Below are positions 24,803 through 36,221 of a stretch of DNA of 64,000 bases, piece by piece. The notes under the pieces are model-generated. The model did not search any database, was not told where the DNA came from, and saw only the letters and a list, made by a program, of their open reading frames with translations. Origin of the DNA: an uncultured Acidobacteriota bacterium (GTDB taxonomy: Bacteria > Acidobacteriota > UBA6911); NCBI GenBank assembly GCA_963843575.1, contig CAWJKZ010000014.1, forward strand, positions 32,001 through 96,000, written 5' to 3'. The translations under genes and the position numbers were made by a program. How positions within the stretch are numbered: the first letter of the stretch is position 1; each line of letters begins with the position of its first letter.

Positions 24803-26437
24803 ATGAGAGTCCATGCACTCGTACTCCTCGTCGTCGGCGTAATGGCGCTCCAGGGAGCCCAGCCCGCCGGGCCCCTGTTCAACGACGTGACCAGGCAGGC
24901 CGGTATCGACTTCAGGCACTGCCTGGGAGCCAGGAAGATCAGCAACATCGTCGAAGCGACCGGATCGGGGTGCGCGTGGTTCGACTTCGACCGGGACGGG
25001 AAGCTCGATCTCTACCTCGTCAACGGAAGTTACCTGGAAGGCGTCAGCGACCCCCGCTCGCCGTTCAAGGGGGCGAGCCTCGCAAGCCGGCTCTATCGCA
25101 ACAACGGGGACGGCACCTTCACCGATGTTACCGAGAAGTCCGGGGCGGGCAACGACAGCCGCTACGGCATGGGTGTCCTGGCAGGGGATTACGACAAGGA
25201 TGGCTTTGCCGACCTGTACGTCACCAACTACAACGGCAACATCCTTTATCGCAACAACGGCGACGGGACCTTCACCGACGTGACGGCCAAGGCTGGCGTC
25301 GCGGTCGGGCGCTGGAGCACGGGGGCTGCGTTTTTGGACTACGATAAGGACGGGTTCGCAGACCTGTTTGTCGGTGTTTACCTCGAGTTTGATTCCTCCT
25401 ACCGGCTTTTCTACGAGGCCGACGTCTACCCGGGACCCCTGGCCTACCCGGCGCAGGCCAGCGTCCTCTATCACAACAACGGGGACGGCACCTTCACCGA
25501 CGTCACCGAAAGGGCGGGTGTCGGGATGAAAGGCCGCGCCATGGGTGTTCTGACGGTCGACTACGACGACGACGGCTGGACCGACATTTTTGTGGCCAAC
25601 GACAACACGCCCAATTTTCTGTACCACAACAACGGCAGCGGAACGTTCAAGGAAGTCGCGCTCGCCGCGGCGGTTGCCTTCGGGCAGAACGGCAACGCGG
25701 CCGCGTCCATGGGCGGCGACTTCGGTGACTTCGACCGCGACGGGAGGCTCGACCTGATCGTCCCGGCCATGGGCTACAACGCGCTGTACCGGAACATGGG
25801 CGGAGGCGTTTTCGAGGATGTGGCGATGTCGGTGGGACTGGCCGTGATCAGTGGACAGTACTGGTCGTGGGGCGGCAAGTTCCTCGACTTCGACAACGAC
25901 GGCTACCTCGATGTCATGGTGGTCAACGGCGACGGGCACCGCCTCTCCGAGACCCAGGAGGCCATCCTGGCGAGAAATGTCCCGGGGGCGAAAGGCAGAC
26001 GGGTATATCAGGATGTCGCCGAACAATCGGGTCCGTTTTTTCACACCAAGAGCGTCGCCCGTGGCCTTGCGCTGGGCGACTACGACAACGACGGCGATGT
26101 GGATGCCTTCGTACTCAACATCGATCAATCCTCCATGCTGGTCCGGAACGACGGGGGAAACCAGGGAAACTGGCTGGTGTTGGACCTGGCAGGCACGCGC
26201 AGCAACCGCGACGCACTCGGCGCGAAGGTGACGGTCAAGGCTGGGGACCTTACCCGCTACGACGAGAAGAAGTCTGGAACCAGCTATCTTTCCCAGTGTG
26301 ATCCGCGCATGCATTTCGGGTTGGGAAACGCTGCGGTCGTGGACGAGGTCAGGGTTAAATGGCCAAACGGAGTCAGCCAGGTGCTCAAGGGCGTGAAGCC
26401 CAACCAAATCCTCAAACTCGCCGAGCCGCGCAGCTGA
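24803..26437 (+). CDS. Secreted CRTAC1/ASPIC-UnbV protein with FG-GAP (VCBS) repeats
   Basis: Repeated DxDxDGxxD and YRNNGDGTFTDVT; C-terminal SNRDALGAKV..YLSQ..HFGLG..VKWP. Confidence 0.92.
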   Translation: MRVHALVLLVVGVMALQGAQPAGPLFNDVTRQAGIDFRHCLGARKISNIVEATGSGCAWFDFDRDGKLDLYLVNGSYLEGVSDPRSPFKGASLASRLYRNNGDGTFTDVTEKSGAGNDSRYGMGVLAGDYDKDGFADLYVTNYNGNILYRNNGDGTFTDVTAKAGVAVGRWSTGAAFLDYDKDGFADLFVGVYLEFDSSYRLFYEADVYPGPLAYPAQASVLYHNNGDGTFTDVTERAGVGMKGRAMGVLTVDYDDDGWTDIFVANDNTPNFLYHNNGSGTFKEVALAAAVAFGQNGNAAASMGGDFGDFDRDGRLDLIVPAMGYNALYRNMGGGVFEDVAMSVGLAVISGQYWSWGGKFLDFDNDGYLDVMVVNGDGHRLSETQEAILARNVPGAKGRRVYQDVAEQSGPFFHTKSVARGLALGDYDNDGDVDAFVLNIDQSSMLVRNDGGNQGNWLVLDLAGTRSNRDALGAKVTVKAGDLTRYDEKKSGTSYLSQCDPRMHFGLGNAAVVDEVRVKWPNGVSQVLKGVKPNQILKLAEPRS

Positions 26438-28312
26438 TTGCGGCGTGCGTGCTGCTCGGGTCGCTGTGGGCGTTTCCCTCAGGGGGTCGGACACCGGCCG
26501 GCGCTTCGAACCCGGTCCTCGTCTTTACGCAGGTTCCCTGCCGTCCGCGGCCGGCAGCGCCGAAGGGTGTGTTTGAGTTCCGCAACGCTAGGCCCGAGGG
26601 CGCCCGGATCGTCAGCATGGCTCCGGGCCGGCCCATCCAGGTCCTTACCTCCGAGTTCGCCTCCGCCTGCGACCCCTCGCTCTCCTTCGATGCCCGGCGC
26701 ATCCTGTTTGCCGCCAGGCGCACTCTGCGCGACACGTGGTCCATCTGGGAGATGTCGGTCGACGGCTCGGACAAGCGGGAGATCACGCCTGGCTTCGGCA
26801 ACTGCGCGGGGCCCCGCTATCTCGCGCGCGGGAGCATCACGCCGCCTGAATACGACGAGAAGGTGCGCTGGATCGTGTTTTCCTCCGACGCGGCGGGGAC
26901 CCGCGAGGAGCTGAGCGACAGCCTGGCGACCGCGCTCTACGTGCGCAACATCGAGCCGATCGCCGGCCGCGGGGTTGTTACCTGGCGCACCACCTTCAAC
27001 CTCTCGAGCGACTTTTCTCCGACGGTCCTGCGCGACGGCAGGGTCCTGTTCACGAGTCGGCAGCCCGGGGACGATCCCGCCCACCCGCTTGGGCGCTTTC
27101 CGCTCATGCTCGCCAATTGGGACGGCACGGGGCTGAACCTGTTCTACGGGAACTCGGAAGGGGCCGTGCTGGACACGATGGGGGTCGAGATGCCGGATCG
27201 CACCCTCGTCTTCGTCGAGTCCGACGGGGAGGACGCAAACGGCGCCGGCAGGCTCGCCCGCGTCTCGTTCGCGCGGCCGCTCCACAGCCACGAAGTCCTG
27301 AGCCGGGAGCCGGGGCTGTATGCCAGCCCTGCGGCGCGCGCCGACGGGACCCTCGTGACGAGCTACGCCCCGGCCGGGAGGAGCTTCGGCCTCTACCGGT
27401 TCAGCCTGGAAACGGGTGCCCCGTCGGAGGCGCTGTTCGACGACCCGAAGTGGGACGAACTCCAGCCTGTCCCGGTCGAAGCCAGGGCCGAGCCCACCGG
27501 TCTCCTGAGCGCGGTCGTGGATTCGGCGGAGACCGCAGATCTGCAATGTCTCAACGTCTACGAATCGGAAACGGCCGAGCCGCCCCGCAAGGGAGAGGTC
27601 AAGTCCGTCCGGCTGATCGAGGGGGTGCCGCTCCCCGCACACGAGAGAATTCTGCCGCCGCTGCCCGGGAGCGCCTCTCCTTCGAACCTGCGCACCCGAA
27701 TCCTGGGAGAGGCGCCGGTGGAGGAGGACGGATCCTTTCTCGTGACCGTTCCCGGGGACACCCCGTTTTTCGTGCAACTGTTGGATGCCGGGGGCATGGC
27801 GGTCAAAAACATGCGCGGCTGGATGTGGGTTCGGAAAGGGACCAGCCGAGGCTGCATCGGTTGCCACGAGAACAGGGAGATGGCGCCGGAGAACCGTGCG
27901 ACCATTGCCCTGATCAAGCACAGGCCGGCCGCGCTGCTGACCCCGCCCGCCGAGCGCAAGAGCCTCGACTTCCAGAAAGACATCATGCCGCTGCTGCAGG
28001 CGCGCTGCGCCTCGTGCCACAGCGGCAAATCACCCAGCGGCGGCTTCAGAATCACGGGCACCGCGCCGGCCCCGTTCAACCACGCCTATCGTCAGCTCCT
28101 GAGCGTCAGGCCGGCCCACTCGGTTCAGGGGGATGGTGGCAGCCCCCTCGTCCTGCCCGGCAGCGCGCGACAAAGCCTTTTATCCCAGATAGTTGGCGCA
28201 GTCGAAACCCTCGCGCCCGGGGAGCTCCGGACATCCGGCTGTCGAGTTGACTGACGAGGAGCGTCGCACCGTGGTGCAGTGGATCGACCTGGGAGCCCGA
28301 TGGGCGAATTAA
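26359..28312 (+). CDS. Hydrazine synthase alpha-subunit-like di-heme c protein, frameshifted near 28230
   Basis: TolB-like propeller (TFNLSSDFSPTVLRDGRVLF, NWDGTG); middle domain RILGEAPVEEDGSF..PGDTP..QLLD; CIGCH and CASCH; the shifted frame ends HPAVELTDEERRTVVQWIDLGARWAN* at 28312. Confidence 0.8.
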
Positions 28313-28355
28313 TTGCATAATTGCTGCATATCACGCAGTGTACCCGGAGGCTCGA

Positions 28356-35309: not shown

Positions 35310-35321
35310 AGGAGATCGGTT

Positions 35322-36221
35322 ATGAGACGGGAGCCGAGCGTCCCGGAGGCGGATGCGCCTGTCCTCGCCGCCCAGGCGTCGCTCAAACTGGTTGGCCGCC
35401 AGTCCGGGGTCGGCAGGACGCTCGTCGAGATCAACGACGTCCGCGTCGGCGGGAGCCATATCGTCGTCATGGCGGGCCCCTGCGCGGTCGAGAACGAAGA
35501 GCAGTTGATGGAGACCGCGCGCGCGGTAAAGGCGAGCGGAGCGAGCGTCTTGAGGGGGGGCGCGTTCAAGCCGCGTACTTCCCCTTACAGTTTCCAGGGA
35601 CTCAAGGTCGACGGCCTGAGGCTCCTCGCTCAGGCGCGCCTGGAAACCGGCCTGTCGGTGGTCACCGAGATCATGGACCCCAGGCAACTGGACATCACCT
35701 GCAAATACGTCGACGTGTTGCAGGTCGGCTCGCGCAACATGCAGAATTACGCGCTCCTGGAAGAAGTGGGGAAGTACCGGAAGCCCGTGCTGCTCAAGCG
35801 CGGCATGATGGCGACCATCGAAGAGTTGCTGCTCGCCGCCGAGTACGTCATGAAATCGGGCAATATGCAGATCATGCTGTGTGAACGGGGAATCCGGACA
35901 TTCGAGACTACCACCCGCAACACGATGGACCTCAATGCCGTGCCGATGCTCAAGGCGCTCACGCATCTTCCGGTCATTGTAGACCCAAGCCACGGCACGG
36001 GGCACTGGTGGATGGTGCCGTCGCTGGCTAAGGCTGCGGTGGCGGTCGGCGCGGACGGTCTGCTGATCGAAGTCCACGCCGAGCCCTCGCAGGCGCTGAG
36101 CGACGGGATGCAGGCGCTGCGCCCGGACCGATTCGATGACCTTATGAGGGATCTGAGACCCATAGCCGCCGCGGTTGGAGCCGAATTGGCTACTCCTGCC
36201 GCCACGGCCGTGGGGAGTTAG
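35322..36221 (+). CDS. aroF: DAHP synthase type I-beta, without regulatory domain
   Basis: [55 protein letters not shown]. Confidence 0.95.

Follow-up and report, generated by a model that had tools for sequence, protein, structure and literature searches.

The operon described here occupies positions 24803-36221 (plus strand) of a 64,000-nucleotide stretch, hereafter the window, of contig CAWJKZ010000014.1 from an uncultured Acidobacteriota bacterium (assembly GCA_963843575.1), and belongs to a widespread family of gene clusters built around homologues of hydrazine synthase (HZS). Seven gene families recur in several orders around the alpha-like gene of these clusters across phyla, among them a chorismatase-like gene and a gene for 3-deoxy-D-arabino-heptulosonate 7-phosphate (DAHP) synthase. 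The window very probably holds a member of the HZS-homologue family that is not itself a hydrazine synthase, and there is about an even chance that its heme proteins are functionally coupled to a chorismate-derived acid. The gene set described in the original prediction is present, and its interpretation is borne out in part. The HZS-homologue core of the cluster is already published and its function is disputed; no report, supplements aside, was found of its association with genes for a chorismatase-like protein and a dedicated DAHP synthase.

Gene content and recurrence of the cluster

The eight genes, here g1 to g8, are co-oriented and tightly spaced or overlapping, as the original prediction had described them, with intergenic distances from g1 to g8 of -79, 83, 14, -4, 13, 97 and 12 nucleotides, and it is because of this tight spacing that they are read as one operon. 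In order, they encode a putatively secreted, CRTAC1-like FG-GAP propeller protein with a C-terminal UnbV_ASPIC domain (g1, 24803-26437); an HzsA-like di-heme protein (g2, 26359-28254); a fusion of an HzsB-like propeller, a di-heme domain related to cytochrome c peroxidase (CCP), MauG and HzsC, and a c554-like tetraheme domain (g3, 28338-30854); a putatively secreted single Reg_prop beta-propeller (g4, 30869-32038); two paralogous type I periplasmic binding proteins of the Peripla_BP_6 family (g5, 32035-33396, and g6, 33410-34606); a cytoplasmic single-domain Rid-fold protein with a Hyg5-type signature (g7, 34704-35309); and a type I-beta DAHP synthase that lacks the N-terminal part of its model (g8, 35322-36221). 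Pfam and NCBIfam calls reproduce the domain list given beforehand for the eight genes, and the expected total of eight CxxCH motifs was recovered, two of them in g2 and six in g3. The expected secretion of the first six proteins agrees with a crude hydropathy check, which is not a signal-peptide predictor: N-terminal stretches of 12 residues (residues 5-16 in g1) have mean Kyte-Doolittle hydropathies of 2.3-3.1 in each of g1 to g6, against 0.7 in g7 and 1.6 in g8.

Because the same families recur beside HzsA-like genes in other genomes, the gene set exceeds chance by far. A search for relatives of the alpha-like protein g2 returned 433 proteins at E ≤1e-5 among 8,000 candidates scored; PF18582 is present in every one of the 120 matches listed, almost all of which bear the name 'hypothetical'. 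Eighty loci from GTDB species genomes were fetched with an alignment of 21 alpha-like proteins; 79 of them are titled as metagenome-assembled genomes (MAGs) and one, L087, is a single amplified genome. They span at least ten phyla (Acidobacteriota, Latescibacterota, KSB1, Poribacteria, Gemmatimonadota, Planctomycetota, Bacteroidota, Rhodothermota, Verrucomicrobiota, Omnitrophota, Fibrobacterota and others). Neighbours were counted by tblastn with the window proteins, both over all loci and over a well-covered subset of 35 with at least 4 kb of sequence upstream and at least 9 kb downstream. The FG-GAP gene was found in 67 of the 80 loci (30/35 well-covered), the beta-gamma-like gene likewise in 67 (33/35), the Reg_prop gene in 52 (29/35), binding-protein genes in 47 (29/35), the Rid-like gene in 34 (23/35) and the DAHP synthase gene in 24 (15/35). 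All-against-all clustering of open reading frames (ORFs), chosen by conservation weighting from the 80 loci and the window, delimits exactly seven recurrent families, any other family being confined to at most six of the 81 sequences. The DAHP synthase count was taken from tblastn (24/80) and not from clustering family F6 (29), as F6 included sigma-54 activators of 457-482 residues. A failure of these genes to co-occur elsewhere had been named beforehand as one outcome that would speak against the original prediction; they recur together, the Rid-like and DAHP synthase link included.

At least six gene orders are seen, with the Rid-like and DAHP synthase genes placed differently. With F standing for FG-GAP, A for alpha-like, BC for beta-gamma-like, P for Reg_prop, S for binding protein, R for Rid-like and D for DAHP synthase, the window and other Acidobacteriota show F-A-BC-P-S-S-R-D. 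Further Acidobacteriota show D-(R)-F-A-BC-P; F-A-BC-P-R-S-D-S is found in Bacteroidota and Gemmatimonadota, F-A-BC-P-S-R-S in Latescibacterota, R-A-F-BC-P-S-S in Planctomycetota, Omnitrophota and others, and D-A-F-BC-P in KSB1. Planctomycetaceae have BC-A alone, and in one locus (L064) a chorismatase-like gene lies directly upstream. In related loci the Reg_prop gene sits directly 3' of the beta-gamma-like gene, and the pair is always adjacent. That the same families stay together through rearrangement is typical of functionally coupled genes.

In a quick maximum-likelihood tree of 77 alpha-like proteins (three of the 80 rows, shorter than 440 residues, were left out), the window's protein falls within a starred 15-row Acidobacteriota clade in which the order is always F-A-BC and the beta-gamma-like protein carries six heme motifs in 11 rows, four in one (L026) and an uncountable number in three. 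This clade is nested in a starred clade of 32 rows composed of MAGs only. Across the family, beta-gamma-like proteins combine two core heme motifs with no further motif, with one, four or eight N-terminal motifs, or with four C-terminal ones, the last arrangement being that of the window's Acidobacteriota lineage; in loci of type A-F-BC (L052-L098), 2, 3, 4, 6, 9 or 10 heme motifs were counted in the beta-gamma-like protein. Alpha-like proteins carry one or two. Repeated independent fusion of electron-transfer modules to the beta-gamma-like protein is implied by these sequences, because c554-like domains are N-terminal in some lineages and C-terminal in that of the window. One locus, L027, comes from a MAG titled Acidimicrobiia (Actinomycetota), yet its alpha-like gene nests within the Acidobacteriota clade; its Rid-like and DAHP synthase genes are divergently oriented and its DAHP synthase falls in a different clade, a combination that suggests mis-binning or gene transfer.

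The host belongs to the Acidobacteriota, in line with the Acidobacteria-like host proposed beforehand, and has a soil-type genome whose nearest relative, L020, is titled 'uncultured Acidobacteriota bacterium'. Within the phylum the distribution of the alpha-like gene is patchy: it was found in 17 of 61 related genomes at E 1e-10 and in 15 of 301 evenly sampled genomes at E 1e-30, both tallies including one unpublished genome, G046, which also enters the g7 tally below and carries none of the conclusions. Strong g7 orthologues (E <1e-60) occur in 9 of the 61 related genomes, and eight of these nine also carry an alpha-like gene. Furthermore, contig 23 of the same genome (L125, 44000-63900; ~8374-12870) has a second, reduced locus that pairs a 553-residue HzsA-like paralogue (34% identity to g2) with a paralogue of the Rid-like gene whose product shares 69-71% identity with g7. 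Also encoded there are CcmH, a 4HBT-type thioesterase and a cupin/HTH regulator; the beta-gamma-like, FG-GAP, Reg_prop and binding-protein genes are missing.

The heme proteins and their relation to hydrazine synthase

The profile searches suggested with the original prediction returned 78.3 bits for HZS_alpha (PF18582, cut-off 26.6) in g2 and 36.6 bits for CCP_MauG (PF03150, cut-off 25.6) in g3, where no single stretch passes alone, and the HZS-type architecture that it had proposed holds in alignments with the chains of the solved enzyme, g2 matching chain A and g3 chains B and C of Kuenenia stuttgartiensis HzsABC (PDB 5C2V). All four NCBIfam equivalog or exception models for HZS are nonetheless far under cut-off: g2 scores 235.4 bits against NF052339 (hydrazine_alpha, cut-off 800), and g3 scores 177.9 bits over residues 35-397 against NF052340 (hydrazine_beta, cut-off 560), 52.3 bits against NF052341 (hydrazine_gamma, cut-off 625) and 165.2 bits against the beta-gamma fusion model NF052342 (cut-off 1250).

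Like the alpha subunit, g2 has a propeller, an HZS_alpha middle domain, a heme alpha-I motif and a heme alpha-II domain, and these are the four stretches that align with 5C2V chain A (E 1.3e-58). Its two CxxCH motifs lie at residues 499 and 550, the first reading CIGCHEN where HzsA has CSGCHYG and the second CASCH where HzsA has CAMCH. The alpha-Tyr591 heme ligand, four residues past the CxxCH His in HZS, is missing from g2, which reads CIGCH-ENRE; Glu504 and Glu507 are invariant after the first CxxCH across 21 family members, with no conserved Tyr there. A 2-residue gap at the alpha-Tyr591 region is reported for clades I-III of the homologues described by Hagglund et al. (2025, Genome Biol Evol; PMC12758564). 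Relative to its closest relative, L020, which is intact, g2 carries a 1-nucleotide insertion near 28204, which could reflect either a true frameshift or a fault of the assembly. The conserved tail '...VQWIDLGARWAN', comprising the ~35 last residues, falls in the +1 frame of the plus strand (28205-28311) by three-frame translation and DNA alignment with L020, and agrees with the family consensus in the alignment of 21 alpha-like proteins. This out-of-frame tail is one candidate for the small ORF mentioned in the original prediction, whose identity is not confirmed.

The fused protein g3 begins with a seven-bladed YVTN propeller (~residues 35-400) that, like 5C2V beta, has a PKN...G loop region and aligns over its whole length with chain B (E 3.7e-43), continues with a di-heme domain (~residues 420-655) that matches chain C, the HZS gamma subunit (E 1.8e-12), and ends in a tetraheme domain (~residues 687-820) related to cytochrome c554 (1BVB, E 2.5e-5; Cytochrome_C554, 51.3 bits over residues 695-776). 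The fusion of beta and gamma is also found in Scalindua HzsBC. The CxxCH motifs of g3 lie at residues 437 (CNTCH), 563 (CITCH), 696, 744, 771 and 807. In the beta Mg-binding loop, where HZS beta reads PKNWLPVCEAENGQ and g3 reads PKNLIPETQVYQGW, the two Glu of HZS beta, either of which may be the ligand, stand opposite Gln261 and Tyr263 of g3; the Mg-binding Glu is reported as not conserved in homologues (PMC12758564).

The di-heme domain combines features of two families. By its gathering score, its two CxxCH motifs ~126 residues apart and a Trp between the hemes, it is a member of the PF03150 family of bacterial CCP, MauG and MbnH, with which it shares the motifs PFKWxGKN, PYLHDG and LEEIW; weak matches to MauG (TIGR03791, 28 bits) and MbnH (TIGR04039, 29 bits; PDB 6E1C) are both far under cut-off. 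Unlike these enzymes, it is joined in one chain with a propeller and a tetraheme domain, and the His-Gly region after its second heme aligns with HZS gamma. In its C-terminal part the domain most resembles HZS gamma, with an invariant His628-Gly629 where gamma has 'MHG', and we infer that the second heme may be bis-His ligated because this region aligns best with HZS gamma. Signature residues of HZS gamma are missing. In a phmmer alignment, an Asp of g3 occupies the position of gamma-Cys165 (5C2V_C chain position 126, offset 39) with no Cys nearby, and g3 has no counterpart of the gamma 'FRHEGF' segment that holds His144. Instead of this region g3 has PFKW(481)NGKN, matched in the alignment to WDGR of the CCP structure 1NML, and Trp481 is invariant in 26 sequences. 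The alpha-like and beta-gamma-like proteins may form a complex. Because the beta-gamma-like and Reg_prop genes are always adjacent, g3 (residues 40-660) and g4 (38-389) were selected for complex prediction, which gave a score of 0.00 against a mark of 0.32, a 'no answer' that is evidence neither way.

To our knowledge, hydrazine synthase was long held to have no relatives. Distant homologues in non-anammox bacteria have been described as clades I-IV, with an alpha-like gene upstream of a fused beta-gamma-like gene, two binding-protein genes downstream, and an FG-GAP/CRTAC1 gene lying between alpha and beta-gamma in clades I and II and upstream in clade III (PMC12758564). Key HZS residues are not conserved in them, Trp is found for gamma-His144, and clades I-III are judged not to be hydrazine synthases; cultured carriers named there are Paludibaculum fermentans, Opitutus terrae and Thermogutta terrifontis (PMC12758564). 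Related hzsA-like genes adjoin fused hzsBC-like genes in Phycisphaerae MAGs, where a broader family with other substrates was proposed, and hzs-like genes of KSB1 MAGs are covered in the same report (PMC10732223). In cold-seep MAGs of ten phyla, including Acidobacteriota, Bacteroidota, Gemmatimonadota, Fibrobacterota and Verrucomicrobiota, 'HzsA' and its transcripts were read as anammox potential (PMC11828985). The novelty claimed for the cluster is not supported in the light of these reports, in which non-anammox HZS homologues with a fused beta-gamma, FG-GAP and two binding-protein genes already appear (PMC12758564; PMC10732223; PMC11828985).

The window belongs with the published clusters: it shares their alpha-like and fused beta-gamma-like genes, the adjacent FG-GAP/CRTAC1 gene and the two downstream binding-protein genes, and its FG-GAP gene lies upstream of alpha as in clade III (PMC12758564). 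Protein family and phyla are likewise the same as in the other two reports, with the fused hzsBC-like gene beside the hzsA-like gene (PMC11828985; PMC10732223). The types in the main text of PMC12758564 carry eight or four extra N-terminal motifs (clade I), none (clade II) or one (clade III) on the beta-gamma-like protein, and differ from the two-heme alpha and C-terminal tetraheme domain of the window. We infer that the Bacteroidota/Gemmatimonadota group fits clade III, and that the A-F-BC group with 6-10 hemes, which includes a Thermogutta MAG, fits clade I. The Reg_prop propeller is not described in the sections of PMC12758564 on these gene clusters; DAHP, chorismate and RidA have no occurrence in the main texts of PMC12758564 and PMC11828985, whose supplements may list neighbour genes; and a literature search for hydrazine synthase with chorismatase, DAHP synthase and CRTAC1, supplements not covered, found no paper linking them.

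Several properties set the window apart from HZS proper. The Tyr ligand and gamma-Cys165 are missing and a CCP-type Trp occupies the gamma-His144 region; the alpha gene precedes beta-gamma and an extra c554-like tetraheme domain is present; and the window proteins appear periplasmic from their N-terminal hydrophobic segments, whereas HZS belongs to the anammoxosome. The hydrazine dehydrogenase model NF052343 has no match in the genome at E 1e-5, in agreement with the non-anammox genome proposed beforehand, although this is weak evidence, the genome being 88% complete and 0 of 14 control genomes having matched. Unlike the anammox reading of PMC11828985, the residue checks and the unfound hydrazine dehydrogenase give no support to anammox in the window's genome.

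Chorismate-linked and accessory genes

The product of g7 matches Ribonuc_L-PSP with 55.5 bits, and its AlphaFold2 model shows a Rid fold with an N-terminal extension (predicted local distance difference test, pLDDT, 84.9); the ESM Atlas returned only 'putative Rid family hydrolase' clusters. The protein is highly conserved, columns averaging 61% identity in an alignment of 17 sequences that come from several phyla. The arginine of the RidA P-A-R motif (Arg105 in enterobacterial RidA) binds substrate. At this position, aligned to the P-A-R of PH0854, g7 has Ser (P170-A171-S172), invariant in the 17 sequences. In its C-terminal motif g7 resembles PDB entry 5AG3, which we take to be the chorismatase Hyg5, a Glu at chain position 334 being in agreement. 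Hyg5 turns chorismate into 3-hydroxybenzoate with Glu-334 as its essential acid (PMC7170507). Residues 85-192 of g7 match 5AG3 232-339 over 108 residues, placing C180 on position 327 and E187 on 334, so that the last strand reads C180-R-E-D-L-L-I-E187-I-E in g7 and C327-R-S-D-L-L-V-E334-I-E in 5AG3, with the same spacing. In entry 5A3K the 5AG3 protein carries Ser at 327, and in FkbO (4BPS) that Cys position is taken by Ala; the SGTAS motif is common to g7 and the FkbO/Hyg5/XanB2 chorismatases. In other cluster types the Rid-like gene encodes proteins of 380-450 residues, with an FkbO_Hyg5-like N-terminal domain and a Rid domain, that keep the C-R-x-[DE]-L-L motif, and the long form of L064 reaches 180 bits on TIGR04444. 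Judged from these alignments, the 'chorismatase-like' label that the original prediction gave to g7 is borne out by the Hyg5-type C180/E187 motif, and its probable standing as a single-domain chorismatase relative that has this motif and lacks the RidA arginine is better founded than on Pfam alone.

The neighbouring g8 is an extra DAHP synthase paralogue that, from its sequence, lacks a regulatory domain. It scores 263.3 bits on DAHP_synth_1, 447.2 on NF006421 (cut-off 335) and 393.8 on TIGR01361 (cut-off 267.75), and spans model positions 63-336 of 338; cluster-linked DAHP synthases are 277-320 residues long. Among the four PF00793 genes of the genome it is the third paralogue of DAHP synthase type, the other two being full-length (337 and 343 residues), and no class II DAHP synthase was found in the genome. 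In a tree of 41 rows, from which six rows were removed as duplicate fetches of the same genes, 17 of the 24 cluster-linked DAHP synthases (from Bacteroidota, Gemmatimonadota and Acidobacteriota) form one unstarred group (support 93/90) that contains none (0/17) of the other PF00793 genes from six of the same genomes. Four others, from KSB1, Latescibacterota and one 'Acidimicrobiia' bin, form a separate starred clade. The cluster-linked enzymes fall in separate clades and were therefore recruited more than once.

Pairings of a chorismatase with an extra DAHP synthase are common in biosynthetic gene clusters. The window resembles such clusters in that g7 adjoins a DAHP synthase of unregulated type, and sister clusters carry a full-length protein with FkbO_N and Rid domains; like FkbO, Hyg5 and XanB2, g7 has the motif C-R-x-D-L-L-[VI]-E-I-E, with the Cys-Glu spacing of 5AG3 327/334. 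Unlike the FkbO, Hyg5 and XanB2 clusters, it has no polyketide synthase, nonribosomal peptide synthetase or tailoring genes, and the partners are periplasmic heme proteins.

Among the accessory proteins, g1 matches FG-GAP_3 (182.5 bits) and UnbV_ASPIC (78.5 bits), and g4 (Reg_prop, 44 bits) is modelled by AlphaFold2 as one propeller (pLDDT 86.6) whose best fold matches are the single propellers of the BT4663/BT3049 periplasmic sensor domains. The binding proteins g5 and g6 score 180.5 and 131.6 bits on Peripla_BP_6 (cut-off 31.7). They are orphans with no transporter genes nearby, and no permease family recurs around the binding-protein genes in the ORF clustering of the 80 loci and the window. 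Their solved relatives include Rhodopseudomonas entries of the PDB groups 4EY3, 4DQD, 3TX6 and 3UKJ, which are presumably benzoate- and coumarate-type binders.

Heme-related genes adjoin the operon upstream, divergently on the minus strand (20786-24561): a Cytochrom_C_asm (CcsA/HemX-like) gene (23758-24561), an ORF with a Shikimate_DH-type NAD domain, HemA-like (22906-23439), and a HemC-C/HemD-like ORF (20786-22267), all three assigned by domain match. The CcsA-like family also adjoins the cluster in L020, L026 and L029. Downstream of g8, a domain match marks an FGE-sulfatase (SUMF1-like) protein with a lipoprotein-like N-terminus (36413-37237), whose gene has its own promoter-like site and is 91% identical in L020 and not conserved in other loci. 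A terminator-like hairpin 3' of g8 (36259-36282, plus strand) comes from a consensus scan only and is weak evidence, terminator-like sites in the window numbering 7 against 8.8 expected from shuffles; a promoter-like site at 36334-36362 is likewise a consensus match only. The sigma-70 and terminator consensus scan found no site within the operon, and the sigma-54 pattern is absent upstream of g1, its total in the window being 14 against a shuffle mean of 23.4, i.e. fewer. Genes for sigma-54-dependent activators lie beside the cluster in L035 (6148-7593), L041 (374-1744) and L044 (2823-5820), the last also with a HAMP histidine kinase. The idea of a compositionally distinct island was rejected, the GC content of the cluster (0.615-0.664) lying within the range of the window (0.578-0.680). 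A search of sequencing runs with window positions 30000-36300 listed no RNA run and two DNA runs, with ~0.06 of words each.

Proposed function and competing explanations

If the heme cluster is coupled to a chorismate-derived acid, the operon can be read as a single route. In such a route g8 would raise flux through the shikimate pathway, and g7, probably trimeric, would split chorismate into pyruvate and a hydroxybenzoate-type acid, 3-hydroxybenzoate by analogy with Hyg5, so that g7 and g8 together probably make a small aromatic acid. This acid would reach the periplasm and be bound by g5 and g6. The alpha/beta-gamma heme complex would exchange electrons with the respiratory chain through its c554-like domain; at the CCP/MauG-type di-heme site, with Trp481 between the hemes, and at the alpha-type heme site, the aromatic acid might be oxidised, coupled or employed as a mediator. 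Any specific chemistry at the heme sites, such as the N-N or N-O bond formation raised as an option in the original prediction, is much less probable than the coupling itself. More broadly, the seven-family module may represent an unrecognised periplasmic pathway, present in at least ten phyla, in which an HZS-type two-site heme enzyme acts on or through a chorismate-derived phenolic acid made for it by a minimal single-domain chorismatase, a proposal that we consider unlikely as it stands. Under it, one option would be the joining of an intermediate of N-oxide origin (NH2OH or NO) to the aromatic ring; alternatively, the phenolic acid might act as a dedicated radical mediator in the oxidation of recalcitrant organic matter.

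A number of observations weigh against the coupling of heme proteins and aromatic acid. On TIGR04444, the FkbO/Hyg5 model, g7 scores only 41.3 bits (cut-off 325), with the match limited to model positions 188-310, and with its 201 residues and single Rid domain it lacks both N-terminal domains of the solved chorismatases (~340 residues, three-domain); the top Foldseek matches of its model are ordinary RidA trimers (target-normalised TM-score ~0.8), a comparison that cannot tell deaminase from chorismatase. Neither the DAHP synthase (15/35) nor the Rid-like gene (23/35) is obligatory in cis, and the loci were retrieved via the alpha-like gene, many from related genomes, so that the counts overstate independence. 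The cluster-linked DAHP synthases are not one clade, the starred branches requiring at least two changes. No exporter family recurs in the cluster in the ORF clustering of the 80 loci and the window, and the ligand of g5 and g6 cannot be called from a PDB sequence search, in which their nearest solved relatives include LivJ-type amino-acid binders besides aromatic-acid binders. Lastly, the 3' end of g2 is frameshifted in the assembly.

Four other explanations of the operon were weighed. That it encodes a genuine, divergent hydrazine synthase serving a cryptic anammox-type N2H4 metabolism, as proposed for 'HzsA' (PMC11828985), is extremely improbable. The domain architectures of alpha and beta-gamma do match HZS, and such genes and their transcripts occur in Acidobacteriota and Bacteroidota MAGs (PMC11828985), but the four NCBIfam models are far under cut-off, the Tyr ligand is replaced by the invariant Glu504/Glu507, gamma-Cys165 by Asp and the gamma-His144 region by PFKWxGKN, and NF052343 finds no match in the genome, weak as that evidence is with 0/14 controls matched; the same conclusion was reached for clades I-III (PMC12758564). 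The CCP-type features of g3 (WxGK with invariant Trp481, PYLHDG, LEEIW) would instead suit a periplasmic reductase that detoxifies peroxide or N-oxides and is fed by the c554-like domain, with structural or sensory binding proteins and with the Rid-like protein and DAHP synthase acting in parallel, for instance by making antioxidant phenolics or aromatic amino acids under the same stress rather than a substrate or mediator. The variable number of extra heme motifs (0, 1, 4 or 8) suits an interchangeable electron-entry module, and the Rid-like gene is missing from 12 and the DAHP synthase gene from 20 of the 35 well-covered loci. A plain CCP, however, needs no alpha-like protein, three extra propellers or two binding proteins, which are nevertheless the most conserved members, and several gene orders place the Rid-like gene within the operon, either between the Reg_prop and binding-protein genes or between two binding-protein genes; we regard this explanation as unlikely.

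Chances are slimmer for a role of the di-heme domain in protein maturation. MauG matures methylamine dehydrogenase and MbnH acts likewise on MbnP, and the MauG-like domain of g3 could similarly install a protein-derived cofactor or cross-link in g2, g4 or g1. The weak matches of g3 to TIGR03791 and TIGR04039 (6E1C), the Trp between the hemes and the constant adjacency of the beta-gamma-like and Reg_prop genes fit such a maturase, but both matches are far under cut-off, the C-terminal part of the di-heme domain, with its invariant His628-Gly629, is closest to HZS gamma, and the chorismate-linked genes would be left unexplained. We consider it equally improbable that g7 is an ordinary deaminase or hydrolase of the Rid family, that g8 serves as a housekeeping DAHP synthase, and that both lie beside the heme genes without functional meaning. 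RidA provides the best fold matches of g7 and g8 passes the DAHP synthase cut-offs; yet the RidA arginine position is an invariant Ser and the Hyg5-type Cys/Glu motif is present in g7, the linkage recurs in several orders and phyla in which no other family recurs, and the genome has two further full-length DAHP synthases.

The three reports on non-anammox HZS homologues disagree, one reading them as anammox potential in ten phyla and the others as an uncharacterised enzyme family (PMC11828985; PMC12758564; PMC10732223). The present analysis argues against the use of 'hzsA' or PF18582 matches as anammox markers in metagenome surveys. Furthermore, the recurrent chorismatase-like gene, often accompanied by a dedicated DAHP synthase gene, makes an aromatic acid derived from chorismate a candidate partner of the heme complex, and through this link the function of the HZS homologues becomes experimentally approachable. 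If the seven-family module is indeed a periplasmic pathway that works on or through a phenolic acid, it would connect shikimate metabolism with multiheme redox chemistry in a new way, and would provide a function for the closest relatives of the key enzyme of anammox.

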